Shown here one piece after another: positions 15,981-26,509 of a DNA stretch of 64,000 bases. Made by a program: the position numbers and the translations under genes. The notes under the pieces are model-generated. The model did no database searches, had not been told where the DNA came from, and saw nothing but the letters and a program-made list of their open reading frames with translations. Positions within the stretch are counted from its first letter, which is position 1, and each line of letters starts with the position of its first letter. The stretch covers positions 60,664 to 124,663 of the forward strand of contig CALXWA010000002.1 of assembly GCA_944392275.1 (NCBI GenBank), given 5' to 3'. This DNA comes from an uncultured Alphaproteobacteria bacterium (GTDB lineage: Bacteria > Pseudomonadota > Alphaproteobacteria > RF32 > CAG-239).

Positions 15981-16491
15981 TTAGATCAATCCAATAAAAA
16001 CATTCCTTATGACCGTTTAGCGGAACAATTTTTTCCAGTTTCCCGCCATTATATTCGCAGACTTTGCGTGAACGAATATTATAATCACGAATCGTCAGCA
16101 AAGCCTTTGCTACTCCTTGTTGGCGGGCATAAGTCAAGACTTCTGCCAAAATCTGATTACCAAATTTTTGGCCTCGTGCCGAAGGTCTTATTCCATAACC
16201 AATATGTCCTCCATATTGACGTAGAAAATCATTTAAATAGTGGCGGAACTTTGCAACACCAACCGGCTGATTATCGGCAAATAACACATAATAAGTTGAT
16301 GGGACATAACCTTCCGGTAAGTCTTTTCCCTGACTATGAGCTACCACCCTCTGGCAAAATGTAGCAAATTCTTCTTTAGAAAGACCGTGAGCCGGGTTTT
16401 CGAATCCATCTTCTCCAGCCGGAATTTCTTGAAACATTTGATAGATTTCATCATCTTCTTTTGTGTTAAGAGGCCGTAATGTAATTTGCAT
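15973..16491 (-). CDS. GNAT family acetyltransferase
   Basis: GGHIGYGIRPSARGQKFG, N.RSRKVCEYNGG. Confidence 0.85.
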   Translation of the reverse strand: MQITLRPLNTKEDDEIYQMFQEIPAGEDGFENPAHGLSKEEFATFCQRVVAHSQGKDLPEGYVPSTYYVLFADNQPVGVAKFRHYLNDFLRQYGGHIGYGIRPSARGQKFGNQILAEVLTYARQQGVAKALLTIRDYNIRSRKVCEYNGGKLEKIVPLNGHKECFYWIDLNA

Positions 16492-16496
16492 ATTAG

Positions 16497-17282
16497 CTAC
16501 TCCTTTTTTGTTATGTTAATTCCCGGAAATAAACTTTCTGCAACCTGGCGGTAATGTTCATTTAGCTCACTAACCTCAAATTGGTATTGTGCGTTTCGGC
16601 TTAAGGTTATATCAATTTCAACATGACGTGTTAAATAGTCTTGAAGTTTTTCGCCCATAAATTCATCTTGTGATATAACCCGGACCGATGGCGGTAAGAT
16701 TTGTCGAAAATATGTTTTTAACAACGGATAATGCGTACACCCCAAAATTAAACTGTCAATTTCCTTAAACTGTTTTACATATTCGGAAGCCAAATTTTGA
16801 GCTTTGGTGAAATTATTATCCTCTAAGGCCGGAACAAGCTCCGGAGCTGCAAGCTCTTGGACCTCAAGTTTGGGATTTAGTTTATGTAATTCTGTTGTAT
16901 AGATTTGGGAACGGACCGTCGCCATCGTGGCGATGACCCCAATTTTTTGAGCATTAAACAACGTTGCTTCTTCTACGGTTGGAATGACGACACCCAAGAC
17001 TTTAACATCCGGAGCATATTGCGGAATAAAACGTTGTTGCAAGTAGCGAAGCGTTATTGAAGTTGCCGTGTTACAAGCAATAATGATTAAAGCACATTTT
17101 TGCGAGATAAGATATTTTACCGCATCTAACGTGTAGGCCAAAATTTGTCCGGATGTTTTATCTCCGTAAGGAAGATTTTTGGTATCGCCATAATAAATAT
17201 AATCGTATTCCGGAAGTTGACGAATAAAGGCTCTGGTAATTACCAATCCCCCTAGACCGGAATCAAATATCCCTATTTTCAT
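16497..17282 (-). CDS. murI: Glutamate racemase
   Basis: IGIFDSGLGG, PYGDK, IACNTAT, LGCTHYP. Confidence 0.95.
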   Translation of the reverse strand: MKIGIFDSGLGGLVITRAFIRQLPEYDYIYYGDTKNLPYGDKTSGQILAYTLDAVKYLISQKCALIIIACNTATSITLRYLQQRFIPQYAPDVKVLGVVIPTVEEATLFNAQKIGVIATMATVRSQIYTTELHKLNPKLEVQELAAPELVPALEDNNFTKAQNLASEYVKQFKEIDSLILGCTHYPLLKTYFRQILPPSVRVISQDEFMGEKLQDYLTRHVEIDITLSRNAQYQFEVSELNEHYRQVAESLFPGINITKKE

Positions 17283-17378
17283 GTTCTTTTACTCTTATTA
17301 TCTTTTGGAAAGGATAATAAGATTTTCCTTTTTCTTTGGCAACTCTATTTCTGAGTTCATCCGCAAAAATTCACCCAT

Positions 17379-17408
17379 AAAAAAAGCCCTCATTAAGAGA
17401 GCTTTTTT
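17379..17408 (-). terminator. Terminator next to the displaced tRNA-Val 3' end (probably the original host terminator)
   Basis: AAAAAAGC-CCTC-attaa-GAGA-GCTTTTTT hairpin just downstream (minus strand) of the duplicated CCA end. Confidence 0.7.
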
Positions 17409-17409
17409 A

Positions 17410-17569
17410 TGGTGGGTGTGGCTGGGAGGGATATTCCCAAACTCTCGTTTGGGCCCCTTTCGTCTCGTAAGCCTCTGCTTCCGGAAAAATCTAAGCTTTC
17501 GCTAAAGATTTTTCCAGAGCATTCGCCAACTATCGACTCCGAACCAGCGACCCCTACGATGTCAACGTA
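17410..17569 (-). repeat. att site: duplicated 3' half of tRNA-Val(GAC), split by a 112-nt insertion
   Basis: 17410-17427 equals 25420-25437 (18 nt) and 17540-17569 equals 25439-25468 (30 nt); 17428-17539 has no counterpart in the intact tRNA. Confidence 0.92.
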
Positions 17570-17696
17570 AATCTCATGAATTTCCTATTATTTTCTTGAT
17601 TGCTCTTATATATTATAATTACTTATTTTTCAATAACTTTATATTGACTTATGTTTTCTTAATAATTATCTTAAATGAATAAATTTACTAAAATTA

Positions 17697-17716
17697 GTTA
17701 CCTATATGTTACCTAA
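17697..17716. promoter_or_regulatory. Putative integrase arm-type site, left
   Basis: GTTACCTAtatGTTACCTAA tandem repeat; 19 of 20 nt identical to 25354-25373. Confidence 0.75.
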
Positions 17717-17725
17717 GAGAGAAAT

Positions 17726-18988
17726 ATGCCTAAATTATCTAAAAGTTTCATAAATCAAATTAAAGACCTTACCTATAAAGATAAAACCTTTACTGATGAC
17801 GAAATTAAAAAATTAGCTATTCGCATCCAAGGAAATAAAAAATCTTGGATATTGACCTACAGAATGAACGGGAAACAAGAAAAAATAACTTTAGGCTCAA
17901 TATTTGAACGAACTCCTGATGATATAAGGGCTGAAGCTATTGAATTACTCGATATGATAAATAAAGGCATTAACCCTAAAGACCAGTGCAATAAAGCCCT
18001 CAATATTTTAACTGTATCCGAATTATGCGACCTATATATGGCTGAGGGTGTAGCTCACAAGAAAGCTTCCACACTAGCAATAGATAACGGCAGAATAACG
18101 CATCATATAAAACCCATTATCGGAAATATTCGCCTTTCTGAGCTCAATACTGGGGATATAGAAAGAATGATGATAAAAATCATGAATGGGGACGTTAAAT
18201 CAGCACAAGAACAGTGTAAGAAAAGAGGAAGAAGTCGTGTTACTGGCGGACACGAAGCTGCCAATAGAACAGTTCAGTTACTTAGTGCTATTTTGAATTT
18301 TGCAAGGAATAGAGAGCTCCTAGACAAGAATCCGGCTAAATTTGTAAAAAGACCTAAAACGCAAGCAAAAGAAACTTTCTTAACTCCTCAAGATATAAAA
18401 CTATTAGGAGCTACTCTTAAACACCCCTTTTATTGTGATAAAAAAGAAGCCATTAATGCAATCAAGCTTTTATTGTTAACTGGATGCAGAAAAAATGAAA
18501 TTTTGTCTTTGCGCTGGGATTTTATTGATTTTGACAATCAATGTTTTCGTTTTCCAGACACCAAGACCGGAAAACAAAATAGAGTATTTGGAACAGCAGC
18601 ACTAAAACTCTTAAAAGAACTTCAATCTAAAAACCCGTCACCATGGGTATTTCCGGCAACAAAAGGCTCTGGACATTATATTGGGCTTCCCAAAATCTTT
18701 AATAGAATCTGCTCTTCCAAACTGGAGGATGATTTTGCTGATAACGCAACTACTTTTTATAAACCAGATATAACCCTTCATTCTTTAAGACATACATTTG
18801 CCAGCATATCAAATTTACTTGGTTACAACGACTTTACCATAGCTGGAATGCTTGGGCACCACATCAGAAGCACTACTGCTCGCTATAGTCACAATGTTGA
18901 CAGTGCTCTTATCTCAGCAGCAAATCAAGTATCTGAATATATTAATAACCTCTTGGAAGGATATGACAATGAACTCATCTCAAAATAA
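17726..18988 (+). CDS. int: Tyrosine recombinase/integrase with N-terminal arm-binding domain
   Basis: LLTGCRKNE (R), DTKTG (K), LHSLRHTFAS (HxxR), MLGH, TARYSH (Y); N-terminal KSWILTYR..GKQEKITLG. Confidence 0.95.
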   Translation: MPKLSKSFINQIKDLTYKDKTFTDDEIKKLAIRIQGNKKSWILTYRMNGKQEKITLGSIFERTPDDIRAEAIELLDMINKGINPKDQCNKALNILTVSELCDLYMAEGVAHKKASTLAIDNGRITHHIKPIIGNIRLSELNTGDIERMMIKIMNGDVKSAQEQCKKRGRSRVTGGHEAANRTVQLLSAILNFARNRELLDKNPAKFVKRPKTQAKETFLTPQDIKLLGATLKHPFYCDKKEAINAIKLLLLTGCRKNEILSLRWDFIDFDNQCFRFPDTKTGKQNRVFGTAALKLLKELQSKNPSPWVFPATKGSGHYIGLPKIFNRICSSKLEDDFADNATTFYKPDITLHSLRHTFASISNLLGYNDFTIAGMLGHHIRSTTARYSHNVDSALISAANQVSEYINNLLEGYDNELISK

Positions 18989-19505
18989 AAAGTGCTATGT
19001 TAGAAAAAGAGAAAACAGTTTTGAGGATGTAACGCGCCACAAAATTTCAAGGCCCGGCTTTATAAAAACGCCAGAAGAAAATATGCAAAAATATCTTTCA
19101 GAAGTAGCTGCTGCTGAAAAAGCTCTATATAACCACTACAATCTTGAATATAATAAACTGCTGAATGGACACAAATTAGCCATATGCTTAGCAAAAGAAT
19201 TTATTCCCAGTTTTTTAGCTGAAGACTATACTCTTGGTAGGCCCAAAGAAATAGATGAGTTAGACCAGTTAGCATTATGTATATGTGTTCGTATTGTTCA
19301 ACTGGAGCATGATGGAGAAAAAATATCTATAGAAAATATTTTAACTGAAGTAAAAAAACGCTGGAATTACTCATCTTCTGTATCGTCTCTTCGCTCTCGA
19401 TATTATGAATACATGAAAAGCAAAACTTGCACTATACTGTTTGATAGAATCAAAGATCACAAGCAAATTATGCTTGATATATTAGAAGATATTTTGAATA
19501 GGTAA
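18963..19505 (+). CDS. Hypothetical element protein overlapping the integrase 3' end
   Basis: GGAAGG RBS before ATG 18963/18969; GRPKE plus a C-terminal SLRSRYYEY helix hints at DNA binding. Confidence 0.55.
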   Translation: MTMNSSQNKKCYVRKRENSFEDVTRHKISRPGFIKTPEENMQKYLSEVAAAEKALYNHYNLEYNKLLNGHKLAICLAKEFIPSFLAEDYTLGRPKEIDELDQLALCICVRIVQLEHDGEKISIENILTEVKKRWNYSSSVSSLRSRYYEYMKSKTCTILFDRIKDHKQIMLDILEDILNR

Positions 19506-19597
19506 TTTTGTACAAAAAAGATTATTCTTTTAATGTACAAAATTAGGACATCTAATCTCCTTAAAACAAATTAAAGTAAAAAATTAAGGAGAAAATC

Positions 19598-19822
19598 ATG
19601 GATACCAAATATTTTACACGCAAAGAAGCTGCGGAATACTTATCAAACACTTTAGGCTTACCTACTAGTCCTAAAACTTTGGCAAAATTAGCAACCATTG
19701 GCGGCGGCCCAGAATACCAGCGCTTTGGGAATAGACGTGTTGTCTATAAACTAACATCTATCACAAAATGGGCTCAAGCAAAACTCTCCAAGCCTATTTT
19801 TAACACCTCTCAAGAACTTTAA
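19598..19822 (+). CDS. Excisionase/AlpA-like winged-HTH protein
   Basis: YFTRKEAAEYL...SPKTLAKLATIGGGPEYQRFGNRRVVY; AAGGAG RBS. Confidence 0.85.
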   Translation: MDTKYFTRKEAAEYLSNTLGLPTSPKTLAKLATIGGGPEYQRFGNRRVVYKLTSITKWAQAKLSKPIFNTSQEL

Positions 19823-19902
19823 TCCAATCACCAACAAAATTGATTTCTCGCTCTTCTATCTTTTGATTGAGGATATGGTTGACATACTTTTTAGGTAACG
19901 AT

Positions 19903-20541
19903 ATGGCAAAAAAGAAAAAAAATTATACTGATTGGAGAGAGCTTGAAGACCAAGCAGACAAAGTGGTTGCAAGTATTCTTAGCCGAACAAAAATAGCATC
20001 ATCTTCAGTTGAGTTAAAAAATTATATTTATTATAAATTACCTCGTTGGAGAGATTTAGCTCAATGGCTAAAACTTTCTATACTGTTCCGTTGCGTTTTG
20101 AACACTCAAGAGTATTCAGCTTTCACTTTAAGGTTTTCCCGAGCTAAGATAGAAAAAGCTTTAAAAACCTCTAAAAACACTCTTTCAGACTATCTGAGAA
20201 GACGAATCTCGCAATCTATGAAAAACAAGCTTGGATTTGTTCCTGAATATCTGTTTGGAATACATCTTGACAGCTCTACAAGTTTTCATATTCACGGAAT
20301 TATCAAGATTGAACATAATGAAAAAGCTATAAGAGAAGCTCTGAAATTAGCTGCCTTTGGAGTTAATTACCAAAAACAGAAGATACACCGCAGTATTTTA
20401 TGTTTCAGAGAGTTATTTTCATCAGTAGGCTGGCTTCGATACATATTTAAGTATAAAAACTTTGATGAGGCCATTTATCAAAGCAGGACCTTATCTCAAC
20501 GAACTCAACGTTTTTATGAGAGTATTCGCAATAAATTATAA
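19903..20541 (+). CDS. Putative HUH endonuclease (rolling-circle Rep-like)
   Basis: Motifs in RCR order: AFTL (I), FHIHGII (II, HUH), WLRYIFKY (III, YxxK); start at MAKKKK inferred. Confidence 0.65.
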   Translation: MAKKKKNYTDWRELEDQADKVVASILSRTKIASSSVELKNYIYYKLPRWRDLAQWLKLSILFRCVLNTQEYSAFTLRFSRAKIEKALKTSKNTLSDYLRRRISQSMKNKLGFVPEYLFGIHLDSSTSFHIHGIIKIEHNEKAIREALKLAAFGVNYQKQKIHRSILCFRELFSSVGWLRYIFKYKNFDEAIYQSRTLSQRTQRFYESIRNKL

Positions 20542-20544
20542 AAA

Positions 20545-20585
20545 CAAAAGAGCTTGGACCGCCAAGAGTCAAAAGCTCTTTTGTT
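20545..20585. terminator. Bidirectional terminator-like hairpin between convergent element genes
   Basis: ACAAAAGAGCTT ... AAGCTCTTTTGT inverted repeat. Confidence 0.65.
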
Positions 20586-20597
20586 AAATATTATTTA

Positions 20598-20894
20598 TCA
20601 TTTTTCACATTTATAAGCTGTTGCTGAGACAATATTCATTACAAATGTATCTTTATTTATTTTTAGAAAATCAGCTTTAAGATTTTTTGCATTTTCTTGC
20701 AGGTACATAACTTTTTCATAAACAGTTCCCCCGGCAGGAATAATAAAGGCTATTTCTTTAGCTTTACATTGTGGCATTTGGTCATAATACATTGGAACAC
20801 TCCATTCATCTGAAATTTTTGTTCCTAAGGGCACGACTATTGCTGATGCGCAAGCACTTAATAAAAATGGAATCAAACAAAAAAGTTTTTTCAT
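20598..20894 (-). CDS. Small lipoprotein
   Basis: MKKLFCLIPFLLSAC lipobox; GAGGTGAGTATG start context. Confidence 0.7.
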   Translation of the reverse strand: MKKLFCLIPFLLSACASAIVVPLGTKISDEWSVPMYYDQMPQCKAKEIAFIIPAGGTVYEKVMYLQENAKNLKADFLKINKDTFVMNIVSATAYKCEK

Positions 20895-20906
20895 ACTCAC
20901 CTCACA

Positions 20907-21263
20907 TTAATTTATACAATCAATATCTTCGATATAAGCCCAACGATTGACTTTTTCACTATTAACTTGAGAGAATCTTGATACGAGCACATCTCCATTT
21001 TTCATACAAAATAAAGCCATTCTTTGTTCATCTGAAGACCAGCATTTATTATTATTCCAAATAGAACGTCCATATTGGAATTTACATGACGCTTTTTTAT
21101 AATTTTTTACCTGCTCAGCCATTTTATCTATTCGTAATTGGTTATATGCTCCCCAAATAAAAGTAACAATAAATAATGCTTGATATGGAGAAAGCCATCT
21201 TAAATGAACAAACAGTAATGAAACAATTATAATGGCAAGAAAACTATACCTCTTTACAGACAT
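20907..21263 (-). CDS. Hypothetical protein with two N-terminal TM helices
   Basis: GGGGAGGTGAGTATG RBS and start; hydrophobic N-terminus. Confidence 0.6.
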   Translation of the reverse strand: MSVKRYSFLAIIIVSLLFVHLRWLSPYQALFIVTFIWGAYNQLRIDKMAEQVKNYKKASCKFQYGRSIWNNNKCWSSDEQRMALFCMKNGDVLVSRFSQVNSEKVNRWAYIEDIDCIN

Positions 21264-21806
21264 ACTCACCTCCCCTTTGTTATACACAAAAAAAGCCGCC
21301 CTGATGAAGTGGCGACTGGAAGTTGGTAACTACAATAAGATAGTGCGACATATTAACTGGATACAGCTTATTTTGCCGCCTTCCAGTCATAAGACTTTCA
21401 GGCATGCAAAATTTCGTCTTTACACAGACGCTTATTGAGAGGTTACCACACCCCAAAACAATCATCATTTGTTTCGTTATAAGAGTAACTATAACTATAT
21501 TATTATGCAAGCTATTTTTAGATAAAATGAAAAGATAAGTCGAGCTATAAAAAGAGGGGATACTTTGATATTATTTTTGACTCTTTGGTTTACTTTTCAT
21601 ATTATTTGTTTAATTTTATTAATCAATATCAACAATGAGTTGTGGCTAGTTAATAAAGATGAAGAAAATATATTCTTTGTGCCTAAAAAGGTTAGTTGGA
21701 GTAGAATTACAGCTATTACCTCATACCGAAAATCGGAATAAAGACATGCTTGAGAAATCCAGCCTCCTGCAAACAGAAATCAAAGAAAAACTTAAAGAGA
21801 TATAAT

Positions 21807-22937
21807 ATGTTAGACGATGATTTTTACAGTATTAGAAACCTATATGAAAAAATAAATATTCTTCTTCCTTATTGTTCTGAAGATACTATTAAAAGGGTAT
21901 TGGATTTTAAATTTTATTTACAGACAGAAGCTAAAAACAGAGACAATGCATTTGCTCGAGAAATAGATAAATATAACGACATAGAGCATAGCATATTATA
22001 TACTCTAACAACAAAAGAAAGAACTACTGTATTGAGAAAGCTTAAAAATATAGATAGAAGAAATGAGCTTAAAAATATTTCAACAGAAGGACCAAATTTA
22101 GAGGTATTGGCTAATAAAGTAAATAATTTAGAAAGAACAATACTTCCCCTTATAGAGCGTCCTAAGTTATACGAAGCTAGAGCCGAAGAAAAGATAAAAG
22201 TAGCAGAGTCCAAAATTGAACAAATGAGTAGAGAAATAGACAAATTACTTGGTGTTGTAGGGAAGAATTATGGAGTTGCAGAACAAATTCAAATAATTAA
22301 TAAAAATAGCGAAGATATTGAAAAAATTAAGCAACAAGCCCAGGCTGCACTAAATAAAATAATTACAGTTTCAATAGCTGAACACTACCAAGAAGCCAAA
22401 GCTGAGTATACTTTAAATTTATCTAAGGTAAAATACAGTAATAATAAAAATAAATTTATTAAATATTCTTATAATGCAACTGTTTGGTTATTAAATATAT
22501 TTAAAAGAATTTTTCAAAAAGATGTTTTATTATACGCAGGCTTTATTATTTCATTATTTTTACTTGCTATATCATACCTTATATTAATAGCTTTAGAATC
22601 TACATCTTACAGAGATATAGCATTAACAATACCTTTAATTTGGTTAACTTGGTTTTTCCAACGAAAAATTAATACAAGGGAAAAGCTATATGAAATTTAT
22701 AATCACAAACAAAAAGTCATGGAAACATATATTGCATTTATGAATAGCGAATACAGTATCAAGTCCAATAATGATTTTGAAGAAGTGATTTTAAATACAA
22801 TAAAAAAAGACCCTAGTGATTGTATTGGCAAAGACAATACGACCATTATCGAAGCTGTTTTAGATAAATTGAGGGGCTTATTCATTACGGCAAAAGCAAA
22901 GAGAATAATTAAAGATGAAATTGATTTAGATAAATAA
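21807..22937 (+). CDS. Hypothetical coiled-coil membrane protein (element cargo)
   Basis: Long AT-rich ORF with heptad-rich middle and 2-3 TM helices near the C-terminus; start uncertain (21750 or 21807). Confidence 0.65.
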   Translation: MLDDDFYSIRNLYEKINILLPYCSEDTIKRVLDFKFYLQTEAKNRDNAFAREIDKYNDIEHSILYTLTTKERTTVLRKLKNIDRRNELKNISTEGPNLEVLANKVNNLERTILPLIERPKLYEARAEEKIKVAESKIEQMSREIDKLLGVVGKNYGVAEQIQIINKNSEDIEKIKQQAQAALNKIITVSIAEHYQEAKAEYTLNLSKVKYSNNKNKFIKYSYNATVWLLNIFKRIFQKDVLLYAGFIISLFLLAISYLILIALESTSYRDIALTIPLIWLTWFFQRKINTREKLYEIYNHKQKVMETYIAFMNSEYSIKSNNDFEEVILNTIKKDPSDCIGKDNTTIIEAVLDKLRGLFITAKAKRIIKDEIDLDK

Positions 22938-23018
22938 GGAAGGAAATAGCCTCTTATGTTTAAATAAAAAAAATAAGTCGAACCACAAAAAACAAAAAAT
23001 GAATTAATTTCATTTTTG

Positions 23019-23624
23019 TTAACATTTATCACGAATTTTTTGAATTATTTGTACTAATTTATCTTTTTCCTTTACTACGCTATCATGTAGCATTTGAGCG
23101 GATTTCTTGAAATTTTCTTGATTCTGCGAAGTTTGTTTTATGTTTTGAAGTAGATGTGAAAATTTAGGATATATGTTCTCTTCAATATCTTCATTAAATG
23201 TTTTTTTATGTGAACTTTTAAAGTGTTGGTCCACATTTCCTAATTTACTAGCTATCATACTAAATACGGAGGTTGCAATTTCTTGAATATGTTCTACCTT
23301 TTGAGTTATTTTATCCAATCCTTCATTAATTGTCATTTTTTGAAGAATATCTATATTAACAATAACTTCATCCATTTTCTCTAATTGGTTTACTAGAGAG
23401 CTTACATAAATCATATAGCCAAAATCTTTATTCCGTTTTTGATATTTTTCATAAAATCCATACAAACTTAATAAAGCGGCATACCAAGCAATCCAATCTA
23501 TATTGTTTATACAATTAATATAAGCTTCCGGTAAAGATAAAAGGCTTGCCAGGACAGGAACACATGCGGCTAATACTAAAAGCAAGAACAGAAAAAACAA
23601 CTTTATCATCTTGCGCATTTCCAA
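23019..23624 (-). CDS. Hypothetical membrane protein (two N-terminal TM helices plus helical domain)
   Basis: Overlaps the STAS-like gene, consistent with translational coupling. Confidence 0.65.
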   Translation of the reverse strand: MEMRKMIKLFFLFLLLVLAACVPVLASLLSLPEAYINCINNIDWIAWYAALLSLYGFYEKYQKRNKDFGYMIYVSSLVNQLEKMDEVIVNIDILQKMTINEGLDKITQKVEHIQEIATSVFSMIASKLGNVDQHFKSSHKKTFNEDIEENIYPKFSHLLQNIKQTSQNQENFKKSAQMLHDSVVKEKDKLVQIIQKIRDKC

Positions 23625-23914
23625 TCTTCTACACCAGATAAAATTTGTTTTTGTATAATTTCTCTTGTACTTTTAAAATGGTACTTGCGAAAAAAACCAT
23701 CCTCACCTAGCGTATCTAAACTTTTAGAAAACAACCCCAAAAAAAATGATGGTGTAAATGTTACTATATAATCAGGAATAATGACATCTATACTGTCTGA
23801 GTTTTTATCAAGTTCATCCAACTTAAATTTTTCCCTAGCATCAGCTCCCTTAACCTTACTTCCGAGAACTGTGGTCCTTTCCTGTGTTAATATCTCTAAA
23901 TTAATTACAGTCAT
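23606..23914 (-). CDS. STAS-like (DUF4325-type) protein
   Basis: VLGSKVKGADARE...IDVIIPDYIVTFTPSFFLGLF...LGEDGF pattern; directly follows a GHKL gene. Confidence 0.7.
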   Translation of the reverse strand: MTVINLEILTQERTTVLGSKVKGADAREKFKLDELDKNSDSIDVIIPDYIVTFTPSFFLGLFSKSLDTLGEDGFFRKYHFKSTREIIQKQILSGVEDWKCAR

Positions 23915-25292
23915 TGTTTTTTACCTTTTTTTGTAAAGATTCTGCATCTAGCATGAATCTTGTTGTTATTATAGTTCCTGGAAATGCTTTATGCAATAAG
24001 TAAGCGTATTTTTTGTCTGGTTCAATTGTTCTATCTTGTTTTAAATTAAACCATTGATAGTTTTTATTATTGCTTAATTTTACTGCATTTCCATATTTAT
24101 CAGAAAACTTAATACAAACATTTCCTGAAATTATAGCTATCTGAGGTTTATCTTCCGAGATGCTGGTATCTCCTATTTCATTAATAAATTTTACCATCCT
24201 TAACATACCTATTCCACCTCTGCTATCTTTGTAGTTCTCTCTAGTAGAACCATCTTGCAAAGCATAAACCGTAGCCAATATGTTTGATGATATATTCTTG
24301 TGCATTTTAATATATGCGTCTAATTCTTGTTTTACAGAATCATTGGTTGTCGATAAAATAGATTCATAAATTGGCATACCTGTATTTATAAAGGAAAGGC
24401 TACAAAAGTATTTTCCATCCCTATATTCCATAAATGAAGTCATATACCAATTTCCTTCTTCTCCTTTTACACTATGTCTTTGAGCATTTTCTAAAATTTC
24501 AATAGTAAAGGATGTGACGTTCACACACCCTTCATCACTTAGCGCCATTGGAGGGTCTAGCTGTATAAGCCATTCATTTATCTTTTCTACTAATCGTGTT
24601 GCACTTACGTCTAACGTTGTTACATTTTGATTTTCAACTAATGTTCTTCTAGGTTTCATAATTGGAGGCAAGGCTATCACATTCCTATCATCCGCATTAG
24701 GTAGCCTCATATCCATGAATTTATCTAAATCTAAACCTTTTATAACATTAGAAACTCTATTGCTAATTTTCCCTCCTCGAATATACGGATACATATCTTT
24801 CTTTACAATTCCCCATAATAAATATGGAGCAATATCATATATTCTATCATCAACAAAATCAGCAAAGGCTTCTAATATTTTAGGTTCATATTCTGCAAAT
24901 TTATAGAACATATCTAGTGTTTCATTAGGATAATCAATAAAAGAAAAGTGCTGTATCGTGATACGATTTTGCAGTTTTTTCCTTTTATATCCTTTTTTCC
25001 ATTCCTTTCCCCTTTGTGAATTAAAGAAATCTAGAATTTCAGATGGTTTAGCCTCATCATACAATCTAGCCATCTGAGACCTCAACAAAGGAATATGCTC
25101 TATTCTTTTATTTGGATATTTTTTTAGTATTAATTTTCTATCAACAGAATGAATTTTATTTTTATGGAGATGTCTTCTATTTCTTTTTTTTATGTTCTCT
25201 CTTATATTTGCAAATTCTTCACTACTTAATTGTGCTAATTGTGTGTGTGATAATTTAGATAATTTAGGAGGAAAAGATATTATATCAGTCAT
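23901..25292 (-). CDS. GHKL/HATPase-fold ATP-binding protein
   Basis: N box EILENAQRHS, G1-like INTGMPI, G2 STRE..SRGGIGM, C-terminal FPGTII; no obvious HisKA or sensor domain. Confidence 0.72.
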   Translation of the reverse strand: MTDIISFPPKLSKLSHTQLAQLSSEEFANIRENIKKRNRRHLHKNKIHSVDRKLILKKYPNKRIEHIPLLRSQMARLYDEAKPSEILDFFNSQRGKEWKKGYKRKKLQNRITIQHFSFIDYPNETLDMFYKFAEYEPKILEAFADFVDDRIYDIAPYLLWGIVKKDMYPYIRGGKISNRVSNVIKGLDLDKFMDMRLPNADDRNVIALPPIMKPRRTLVENQNVTTLDVSATRLVEKINEWLIQLDPPMALSDEGCVNVTSFTIEILENAQRHSVKGEEGNWYMTSFMEYRDGKYFCSLSFINTGMPIYESILSTTNDSVKQELDAYIKMHKNISSNILATVYALQDGSTRENYKDSRGGIGMLRMVKFINEIGDTSISEDKPQIAIISGNVCIKFSDKYGNAVKLSNNKNYQWFNLKQDRTIEPDKKYAYLLHKAFPGTIITTRFMLDAESLQKKVKNNDCN

Positions 25293-25353
25293 AGCATTCT
25301 CAGTTTTTATTATACTATACGATAAAAATTTATTTATTCAATAAGTAAATTCT

Positions 25354-25373
25354 GTTACCTATGTGTTACCTAA
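25354..25373. promoter_or_regulatory. Putative integrase arm-type site, right
   Basis: GTTACCTAtgtGTTACCTAA, matching 17697-17716. Confidence 0.75.
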
Positions 25374-25377
25374 AACA

Positions 25378-25412
25378 AAAGGCTTTCTGGGTATAAAACC
25401 CTGAAAGCCTTG
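25378..25412 (-). terminator. Element-supplied terminator after the reconstituted tRNA-Val
   Basis: AAGGCTTTC-tGGGT..ACCCt-GAAAGCCTT hairpin with an A run on the left (U tail on the minus strand). Confidence 0.7.
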
Positions 25413-25419
25413 ATTTTAT

Positions 25420-25495
25420 TGGTGGGTGTGGCTGGGATCGAACCAGCGACCCCTACGATGTCAACGTAGTGCTCATACCACTGAGCTACACACCC
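25420..25495 (-). tRNA. tRNA-Val(GAC), integration target
   Basis: Reverse complement GGGTGTGTAGCTCAGTGGTATGAGCACTACGTTGACATCGTAGGGGTCGCTGGTTCGATCCCAGCCACACCCACCA folds as a cloverleaf with GAC anticodon. Confidence 0.95.
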
Positions 25496-25621
25496 GCGAT
25501 GGTGTTTTTAATACACTAAAAGATTTTAGAAATCAAGTGCTTTGTTTTTCATTTTTGGAAAAATTAGCGAATATTTAAGTTTTATCCTTTATCCTTAAAG
25601 CTCTAACAGAAAGAGGATACC

Positions 25622-26509
25622 GTGACGGATAAACATATTGATTTTAAAGTCGACTATCAAAAGCTAAAAATCTTTGAGGAATTTAACACTCAGGAAATGC
25701 TTTATCCGATTGTTTTATCTTCCCCTCATAGCGGGAATGTGTTTCCGGATGAATTTTTAGCCAATACCTCTCTTGATGTTAATGAACTTCGCTCTTCCGA
25801 AGATTGCTTTGTCACAGATTTAATCAAAAAAGCTTCTGATGCCGGAATCCCTTTACTGAGCATGAATATTGCCCGTACTTTTGTTGACGTTAATCGTGAC
25901 AAAATAGAGATTGATGAATCGATGTACTTTAACGCTCCCGAGAATCCTAACAATTCCGGATCCAGAAGATGTCGGGTTGGCCTTGGCGTTATTCATCGCA
26001 TTGTATCGCAAAACAAAAACATTTATGATGGAAAAATTTCTTATAAAGAAGCTATGGAACGAATCAAAAACGTTTATGACCCCTACCATAAACGTTTAAA
26101 GCAATTAGTGGATAAATGTTACCGGAAATTTGGTTTTTGTCTGCTGTTGGATTGTCACTCCATGCCATCTGTTATTTGCAAAATCATGAATGAAGAAAAA
26201 CCTCTTGATTTTTGTTTATGCACCCTTTTTGATGAAAGTTGTCCGACACAAATGTCTGAATACCTTAGCGATGAGCTGAAAGAACGAGGATATCGTGTCG
26301 AATTTAATCGTCCGTATGCCGGAGCTTATATTACCTTTAATTATTGCCAACCGCGAAAAAACATTCATACGTTGCAATTAGAGATTAACAGAAGCCTGTA
26401 TATGGATGAGAATGTATATAAGAAAAATGATAATTTTCAATCTATTAGTACAGATATTTCTGAATCAATTCAAGGACTTGGAAAATTTTTACTGGATTTA
26501 AAAAAATAA
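25622..26509 (+). CDS. N-formylglutamate amidohydrolase family protein
   Basis: SSPHSG, RSSED, R.FVDVNR, PYH, LDCHSMPS, NRPYAG, LQLEINR.LY. Confidence 0.9.
   Translation: MTDKHIDFKVDYQKLKIFEEFNTQEMLYPIVLSSPHSGNVFPDEFLANTSLDVNELRSSEDCFVTDLIKKASDAGIPLLSMNIARTFVDVNRDKIEIDESMYFNAPENPNNSGSRRCRVGLGVIHRIVSQNKNIYDGKISYKEAMERIKNVYDPYHKRLKQLVDKCYRKFGFCLLLDCHSMPSVICKIMNEEKPLDFCLCTLFDESCPTQMSEYLSDELKERGYRVEFNRPYAGAYITFNYCQPRKNIHTLQLEINRSLYMDENVYKKNDNFQSISTDISESIQGLGKFLLDLKK

Follow-up and report, generated by a model that had tools for sequence, protein, structure and literature searches.

A folded 112-nt element in a displaced tRNA-Val half and a family of modules behind tRNA genes in one alphaproteobacterial genus

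The tails of tRNA genes are the main landing sites of genomic islands. In a stretch of 64,000 nt from an uncultured alphaproteobacterium (contig CALXWA010000002.1, positions 60,664 to 124,663; hereafter the window), such an island separates an intact tRNA-Val(GAC) gene from a displaced copy of its 3' half, and the T-loop of the displaced copy is interrupted by about 112 nt of structured sequence, which we term element E. This arrangement raises the question of whether E is an intron of the tRNA, a later insertion into the attachment site, or part of a different kind of unit. As the overall best explanation, we consider it probable that the 112 nt are a copy of E serving as the core of a module that lies behind tRNA genes. 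The apparent T-loop intron of the window is a deletion derivative and not a split tRNA.

The interrupted tRNA-Val half in the window

The locus comprises the following features.

16497-17282, minus strand: murI (glutamate racemase; Pfam Asp_Glu_race), the conserved neighbour of tRNA-Val
~17375-17409, minus strand: terminator-like hairpin and T-run, then the initial few bases of an inverted-copy motif (assigned from the sequence)
17410-17428, minus strand: tail copy of tRNA-Val positions 58-76, 19 nt, with A58 changed to C; the module's own copy of the tRNA tail
17429-17540, minus strand: element E, structured core, 112 nt, its first G doubling as G57 (covariance model, 93.2 bits, E-value 2.7e-23)
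17541-17569, minus strand: displaced tRNA-Val segment from the anticodon loop to C56, 29 nt, identical to the intact tRNA; the attachment (att) repeat adjoining the integrase
17570-25419: integrated island, flanked by the tRNA repeat
17726-18988, plus strand: tyrosine integrase open reading frame (ORF; Pfam Phage_integrase, Arm-DNA-bind_3, and Phage_int_SAM_3)
25420-25495, minus strand: intact tRNA-Val(GAC) (ARAGORN; Rfam tRNA, 68.3 bits), its 3' part coming from the island's att copy

The original prediction, made from the letters of the window, had described a split of the displaced T-loop, and we found this split on the minus strand with flanks matching the intact tRNA: G57 of the displaced half lies at 17540, from which about 112 nt interrupt the loop. 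The boundary of E is uncertain by one G (17429-17540 by the covariance model, 17428-17539 in the prediction). The absence of A58 at the junction was borne out, position 58 being C, and the displaced copy is still followed by a terminator, as had been stated. Segments 17541-17569 and 17410-17428 match 25420-25467, with the integrase-bearing island between them. The locus thereby resembles the att repeats of islands with P4-type integrases, having a 29-nt repeat plus the tRNA tail and an adjoining integrase with an Arm-DNA-binding domain, but it differs in that the repeat is interrupted by E, which comes from a pre-existing neighbouring module and not from the island. The att repeat itself is textbook; the module family is unclassified. 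The tRNA-Val gene is the sole Val(GAC) gene in the 1.56-Mb genome, which contains one copy of E, and the remaining island ORFs gave zero Pfam matches.

We compared the interval 16400-25800 with DNA contigs of conspecific strains from four sequencing runs of four studies (X5, X6, X8, and X10); among the runs found to contain the region, none was an RNA run. The contigs of X5, X6, and X8 ran to 17545, continued with 30-35 other letters, and then went back 171 positions to 17375/17379, where the repeat at 17375-17409 recurs; X10 showed the same 30-35 letters as a loose contig end. Read on the tRNA-sense strand, this joint consists of the terminator, an inverted copy, GGTTCG, and E. What abutted the intact tRNA at 25420 in X6, X8, and X10 was the end of the same terminator and not island DNA.

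The same island was found at tRNA-Val in genomes G070 and G075, with integrases 90% identical to that of the window. The displaced tRNA-Val half is uninterrupted in both genomes, followed by the terminator and murI in G075 and by the terminator and an inverted-copy remnant in G070, which argues that E is not part of the island.

The window form equals the displaced half joined to a canonical module minus about 90 nt, the missing segment comprising positions 58-76, a 32-36-nt terminator, the 30-35-nt inverted copy, and one GGTTCG. Because identity with the contigs of other strains begins at 17545, we placed the join within the 6 nt of the GGTTCG repeat. What was lost is nearly palindromic and lies between short direct repeats, a configuration prone to slippage deletion. 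The window form very probably represents a module after island integration and a ~90-nt deletion, the order of events and the deletion mechanism being reconstructed from these comparisons. The species would first have carried a module behind tRNA-Val; a P4-type island would then have entered tRNA-Val, leaving the old 3' half joined to the module; and about 90 nt would have been deleted between two copies of GGTTCG, one in the displaced T-loop and the other in the stub before E. Such a loss would be harmless because that tRNA copy was already redundant, whereas the same deletion before a working tRNA would destroy the gene, and the form is therefore seen only in the displaced copy.

An assembly artefact at the short palindromic repeat, with a canonical module following the displaced half in the true genome, would produce the same arrangement, and the region does contain direct and inverted repeats at which the short-read contigs of other strains break. 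However, the join lies at a 6-nt repeat, too short for k-mer collapse, the genome was assembled into 9 contigs with 100% completeness, and all 189 of 189 sampled 31-mers from 16600-18400 were present in each of three sequencing runs (X1-X3). The sampled 31-mers suggest, short of proof, that the window junction is real, and we regard an artefact as very unlikely.

The original prediction had offered two explanations of the split. In the first, the pre-integration tRNA-Val carried E as a miniature intron or ribozyme in its T-loop, the island repairing the tRNA and excision restoring the interruption. E is structured and placed exactly in a T-loop context, and in being a structured insertion in tRNA-like sequence it resembles known tRNA introns (bacterial group I introns of the anticodon loop and archaeal bulge-helix-bulge introns, some of which lie in T-loops). 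However, tRNA-Val in island-free relatives is either plain or intact before a module, the intact tRNA of conspecific strains meets a terminator, and E lies in a separate downstream partial copy. None of 73 copies of E with flanks stands behind a complete tRNA 5' part, and the same island elsewhere has an uninterrupted displaced half. E, at 73-142 nt, is without a recognisable catalytic core; the prediction had seen no group I or II motifs, and we obtained no Rfam family for E, intron and ribozyme models included, either over the window at the gathering threshold or over 17300-17700 at E-values up to 10. An intron in the original tRNA can hardly be the explanation. In the second, a mobile element hit the att site after integration; as stated, this fails, since E already lay about 90 nt downstream of the tRNA and a deletion between GGTTCG repeats explains the form. 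The idea of a T-loop-targeting element holds insofar as the E family sits in hairpin loops, usually the T-loop, but not as a new insertion at this locus.

A second P4-type integrase, 46% identical to that of the window, is encoded at G000:C1:320831-322087. Next to it, 13.4 kb away from tRNA-Val(UAC), the tail of that tRNA is repeated, and the surrounding interval, G000:C1:320602-334125, is probably a second island.

Modules with E and other cores behind intact tRNA genes

BLAST searches of 60 relatives confined full-length homologues of E to the same genus. In six genomes (G030, G021, G022, G001, G020, and G007), the tRNA-Val gene is intact and E lies downstream of it: a terminator, about 35 nt, and a GGTTYG stub come before E, and the tRNA's last ~19 nt and a second occurrence of the terminator come after it. 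The ~35 nt before the stub are a degenerate reverse complement of the 3' part of the same tRNA (positions ~47-76).

A covariance model built from 16 copies detected 115 copies of E in 45 of the 56 genomes of the genus (one to eight per genome, with lengths of ~76-142 nt), the homologues for which the original prediction had proposed a search. Among 150 other genomes of the class, it matched one, G111, which has 6% contamination. An 18-mer scan of a collection of species-representative genomes matched 121 stretches, 80 of which were fetched and scored by the model; 30 loci were true E and the others chance 18-mers. All 30 are labelled as metagenome-assembled genomes of gut Alphaproteobacteria or of a gut proteobacterium, or as Candidatus Scatocola. 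Nine pattern matches on viral contigs included no true E (best score, 17.2 bits).

For more than half of the 73 copies with flanks (42), an intact tRNA with the same orientation lies 66-86 nt upstream, the tRNAs being Val-GAC, Thr-GGU, Leu-UAA, Glu-UUC, Ser-GCU, Gln-CUG, Gln-UUG, Asn-GUU, and Arg-UCU; Glu-CUC also hosts E in one metagenome contig. Nine copies either come later in an array or are separated by cargo from a tRNA farther upstream; for the other 22, the fetched flank contained no tRNA (contig ends, positions behind cargo, non-tRNA sites, and the window copy).

The module is a stereotyped unit of ~200 bp. On the tRNA-sense strand, its parts come in this order after the intact tRNA: a symmetric terminator, a degenerate inverted copy of positions ~47-76, a tight turn of 0-3 nt (sometimes ~10 nt), a stub that directly copies positions 49-57 (the 5' strand of the T-stem and TTCG), E, a tail that copies positions 58-76, and a terminator. 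A part-by-part comparison of 41 of the 42 tRNA-adjacent modules, each with its own neighbouring tRNA, gave the following agreement.

Tail copy (positions 58-76): median match 18/19, and 19/19 in 22 units
Stub (positions 49-56): median match 7/8
Inverted part, positions 47-57: median match 9/11
Inverted part, positions 58-76: median match 14/19 (local alignment)

Since the tail and stub match the neighbouring tRNA, the flanks are locus-specific while E is common to all. In the tRNA-tail modules, E is always found in the T-loop of a partial tRNA copy and never in a working tRNA. A long closing duplex formed by full pairing of the inverted copy with the tail copy was not supported, as that inverted part is degenerate. 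The heptamer GCGAAGC, known as a DNA mini-hairpin of unusual stability, is found repeatedly where the inverted copy turns into the stub in tRNA-Val and tRNA-Thr modules, and also inside two other cores, E2 and E5.

The tRNA-Val locus is polymorphic within the genus, being plain or occupied by E, by E2 or E3, or by a remnant. Among 25 tRNA-Val loci, 11 are a plain tRNA and terminator, six of these running directly into murI; the remainder are seven modules with E, five with the same frame around E2 (one cut by a contig end), one remnant, and the island-occupied locus of the window genome. With 11 plain loci and seven carrying the module, the inverted copy belongs to the inserted unit and not to the ancestral locus. 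The original prediction had named a plain tRNA-Val in island-free relatives, together with a lack of homologues or covariation, as grounds for abandoning it; the plain loci exist, but so do both homologues and covariation. The E2 module alone separates tRNA-Val from murI in G073 and G024, and the inverted copy is nearly the same in the E2 unit of G011 and the E unit of G030. E3 was found at the tRNA-Val locus in G015 and is probably also present there in G072.

Cores other than E, apparently distinct from it, occupy the following positions.

E2: tRNA-Val; ~85 nt, G+C-rich; loci L027, L028, L031, and L032 (G073, G024, G032, and G011)
E3: at least eight tRNA species (Thr-CGU, Thr-UGU, Gln, Met, Val-GAC, Val-UAC, Glu-CUC, and Leu-CAG); in 22 of 56 genus genomes by BLAST
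E4: tRNA-Lys(CUU), at G000:C1:266300-266770 (L374); ~190 nt, unrelated, between T-stem stub and tail copy in the same terminator/inverted-copy frame
E5: Glu

Two full tandem units with E3 lie behind tRNA-Thr(CGU) (G000:C1:66285-66800; L373), and a further E3 lies behind tRNA-Leu(CAG) (G000:C5:72750-73155; L375); some short motifs of E3 resemble E. Rfam searches with E2, E3, and E4 returned only tRNA matches and one weak opposite-strand match overlapping a tRNA. With no Rfam match and good covariation, the cores are unclassified structured elements and candidate RNAs.

Modules also occur as tandem arrays with a period of ~170-210 nt (L017, L057, L082, L019, L227, and contig C1 of G000), and in five cases two copies of E enclose 1-6 kb of cargo that lacks any integrase domain.

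G005: cluster of aminoacyl-tRNA synthetase (aaRS)-like, S66-peptidase, and methyltransferase genes
G071: two unknown ORFs
G007: DUF4379 protein and two unknown ORFs
G008: N6 methyltransferase
G066: unknown ORF

The 6-kb E-bracketed segment of G005 (L085; G005:C4:14000-29000) encodes a MetRS-like protein, an LD-carboxypeptidase (S66, MccF-like), two methyltransferases, and a class II aaRS-like protein, and may be a peptide-nucleotide antibiotic or immunity cluster; genes for Thoeris ThsB and ThsA lie just upstream of it. In G028, both a one-gene segment and an island encoding a large serine recombinase lie at the end of tRNA-Gln or of a module tail copy, with a 7-nt repeat, from which we conclude that the tail copies act as extra attachment sites. 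This island of ~15 kb (L390/L391; G028:C30:152500-184000), which also encodes an AAA_13 protein and DNA methylases, directly follows tRNA-Gln(UUG) and ends at a 7-nt repeat of the tRNA end, beyond which lie three E modules and the one-gene insert.

Fold and covariation of E

The fold of E was analysed on the tRNA-sense strand, on which its minimum free energy (MFE) was -47.3 kcal/mol (z -6.34), a value reached by none of 200 shuffles. The opposite strand folded less well (-34.2 kcal/mol, z -4.30). The hairpin with a GAAA loop, the hairpin with a GAGA loop, and the short enclosing helix that the original prediction had drawn were all present in the MFE fold.

17462-17537, minus strand: P1 (helix 1), 3-bp helix enclosing P2 (17535-17537 with 17462-17464); GUC/GAC, GUG/CAC, or GCG/CGC across copies, 100% paired, with compensatory changes in 2/3 pairs
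17477-17520, minus strand: P2, long hairpin with the GAAA loop, from the MFE fold; length and sequence differ among copies, helices 3 and 4 are 100% and 96.9% paired, with compensatory changes in 10/10 pairs
17436-17453, minus strand: P3 (helix 5), second hairpin with the GAGA loop, from the MFE fold; 98.5% paired, with compensatory changes in 2/5 pairs

RNAalifold on a MAFFT alignment of 16 copies yielded a fold in which P1 encloses a short helix and the long variable P2, with P3 following, and 13 of its 22 pairs had compensatory changes. In 44 copies aligned by the covariance model (40 distinct), 98.8% of cells were paired and double changes occurred in 15 of 22 pairs (107 cells). None of 500 shuffles matched the observed pairing, and slid controls were only 27-50% paired. 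The 44-copy alignment was fitted to the covariance model and is biased towards the structure, whereas the RNAalifold/MAFFT run is independent of it. E also carries long invariant sequence blocks. A hammerhead-like reading of E by eye failed, there being no CUGANGA box.

On the tRNA-sense strand, the alignment contains ~32 G-U cells against at most ~10 unpaired cells, and the fold was read from this strand for that reason. This and the covariation support the proposal of the original prediction that structure is under selection on the tRNA-sense strand. By the pattern of substitutions, E appears to be folded from that strand as RNA or as single-stranded DNA (ssDNA), and the data fit either.

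A conserved fold of this kind could also belong to a host RNA. In this alternative, the main one, which we rate as unlikely though it deserves weight, the cores are functional small RNAs derived from tRNA read-through or trailer transcripts, and mobility is secondary. The partial tRNA copy (T-stem closing E, 3' strand of the acceptor, and CCA) together with the inverted copy would provide tRNA-like ends, and host tRNA enzymes would process and stabilise the product in the manner of a 'tRNA scaffold'. The compensatory changes and sense-strand G-U pairs are consistent with such a role, as are the G+C content of the cores (44-66%, against 38.7% for the genome), the terminators on both sides, the T-stem or other stem that closes E in every context seen, and the persistence of the fold in genomes without a candidate transposase. 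In the G001 lineage, moreover, changes in the tRNA T-stem are paralleled by changes in the hairpin of inverted positions 47-57 and stub. The distribution is nevertheless patchy, with E, E2, E3, or nothing at the same tRNA-Val locus, unlike that of a housekeeping RNA; the acceptor-like inverted part is degenerate, with its median of 14/19 by local alignment; no consistent promoter was seen by eye; and E occurs in non-tRNA palindromes as well.

Mobility of the modules and comparison with known systems

The reading we prefer takes the 112 nt as the core of a module behind tRNA genes. That this is a miniature non-autonomous insertion module using tRNA gene tails is a more tentative proposal, to which we give somewhat less than an even chance. 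Its core, E, would act in cis, taking its fold from the tRNA-sense strand (RNA or ssDNA) and being recognised by a putative trans factor, the existence of which, like the mobility of the module, we infer, whereas its anatomy, its polymorphism, and the fold of E were observed directly. Modules would be gained, lost, and swapped at orthologous loci and would form tandem arrays. The module duplicates the tRNA tail that islands use as an attachment site, and it therefore brackets integrase-less cargo.

Several observations weigh against this proposal. No fitting enzyme was found among the candidate families searched in the E-rich genomes. The only PF00589 members in E-rich G008 and G035, by the generic model, were two Xer-like tyrosine recombinases of ~300-340 aa; reverse transcriptase (RT; PF00078) was present in two of five E-rich genomes, with none in G008, G005, or G035; IS110 transposase (PF01548) was present in none of the five and TnpB (PF07282) in one; and Y1 transposase, found in 11 of 56 genomes, has a distribution that does not track E. 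The ends of insertion sequence (IS) copies are unlike E (six IS loci, filters off; best match 11.7 bits, E-value 0.07). Neither circular nor excised forms were observed, nor any empty scaffold, and the origin of the inverted copy is unexplained by the module reading. That the fold has long been maintained in the absence of a resident enzyme is no less compatible with an RNA used by the host than with a selfish element. At the locus itself, the window junction rests on the assembly and the sampled 31-mers, and the canonical order in conspecific strains was pieced together from two junction types in short contigs, none of which spans tRNA, module, and murI.

Among specific candidates, we rejected the integrase family of the window, which is not near other copies of E; a tRNA-primed RT or retroelement unit, given RT in only two of the five E-rich genomes; and an IS110 bridge RNA or TnpB omega RNA, given the counts of their cognate enzymes. 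Bridge and omega RNAs resemble the module as structured scaffolds flanked by matches to both target strands, but apart from the scarcity of their enzymes, the antisense part of the module is degenerate. Serine recombinases were found in all five E-rich genomes, with just one <4 kb from E, as part of a separate island.

E is not restricted to tRNA tails. In 16 of 21 metagenome matches, it lies in the loop of unrelated palindromes resembling repetitive extragenic palindromic (REP) sequences, again closed by a stem, and by eye the junctions in T-loops and in other palindrome loops alike read T-Y-G, then E, then A. A further alternative is that E derives, in the manner of a miniature inverted-repeat transposable element (MITE), from a transposon that targets hairpin loops (a palindrome-associated transposable element (PATE) of IS200/IS605 type, an IS110-type element, or similar) and enters exposed loops just after T-Y-G. 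Any hit on a working tRNA would be lethal, leaving survivors only in redundant partial tRNAs and palindromes, and the scaffold of terminator and inverted copy would have an origin of its own, such as fold-back template switching at the terminator palindrome. E indeed occurs in the loops of two unrelated kinds of hairpin in the same orientation (TTC/TTT/TCC/CTT, G, E, A), target duplication is absent at the loop, the two hairpins of E are like transposon ends, and Y1 transposases and end-only derivatives are present in the genus. However, the ends of resident IS200 elements at the six loci searched do not match E, by which we rejected an IS200/IS605-derived PATE or MITE on end homology; none of the 25 tRNA-Val loci holds an empty scaffold (inverted copy and uninterrupted partial tRNA); and cores without evident shared end motifs occupy the same position, which implicates the site or the module rather than a transposase of the core's own. 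We therefore consider a MITE-like origin rather improbable. As speculation, the tight turns between sense and antisense copies, one in the terminator loop and one at position ~48, resemble fold-back template switches.

The form of E in REP-like palindrome loops is 84 nt long (metagenome loci L248, L256, L262, L269, L296, and others) and is preceded by two or three direct repeats of the left half-palindrome with T-rich spacers. G029 contains four copies of a related 132-nt form. A transposase-less, end-only copy of an IS200-type element of the genus lies right after the tRNA-Leu module in G015 (L011:~830-1000); at both its left and its right end, it matches the full-length IS copies of G032 and G070 (L369 and L370).

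Among known small repeats, MITEs, PATEs, REP sequences, and bacterial interspersed mosaic elements are, like E, small, non-coding, multi-copy, hairpin-rich, and patchily distributed, and E also occurs inside REP-like palindromes; unlike in these repeats, no cognate IS with ends resembling E was found, and the flanks of E copy the neighbouring tRNA in both orientations. Integron attC sites resemble the module in a fold conserved over sequence, in folding from one strand, and in integrase-less cassettes arrayed from one anchoring site, but G008 and G035 have only the two Xer-like recombinases, E carries invariant blocks, and the anchor is a tRNA gene.

Tycheposons, as far as their description bears on island structure, are islands built by serial integrations beside a tRNA, with scattered partial tRNA copies, tandem junctions, and recombinase-less cargo (Hackl et al., bioRxiv 10.1101/2020.12.28.424599). 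The modules share with them growth of islands at tRNA genes with partial tRNAs, arrays, and recombinase-less cargo. The partial tRNAs described there are plain att remnants, whereas here a fixed unit of ~200 bp contains an inverted copy and a core and also occurs alone.

A narrow search of the open literature yielded no account of a unit that combines an inverted tRNA copy with a structured core in the T-loop. One genus of gut Alphaproteobacteria shows a fixed small tRNA-tail module in which sense and antisense copies of the tail surround a conserved folded core of one of several kinds. Should the proposed movement or processing of the modules hold, attachment sites would be multiplied in a new way that leaves the tRNA unharmed, which would help to account for the bracketing of defence cargo without integrases, such as restriction-modification genes, at tRNA hot spots. 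In its boldest version, which we hold to be doubtful, the modules would be protein-less mobile units on tRNA tails, in which an RNA or ssDNA core in the T-loop of a self-made tRNA 3' copy, flanked by sense and antisense copies of the target, directs its own insertion via host or transiently supplied enzymes and creates extra attachment sites where defence islands accumulate.

Finally, a further, purine-rich family of short repeats was observed near tRNA genes in several genomes, at L015:~1200-1300 and ~1650-1750, upstream of tRNA-Val in L225 and L226, and at G000:C5:~72750-72800.

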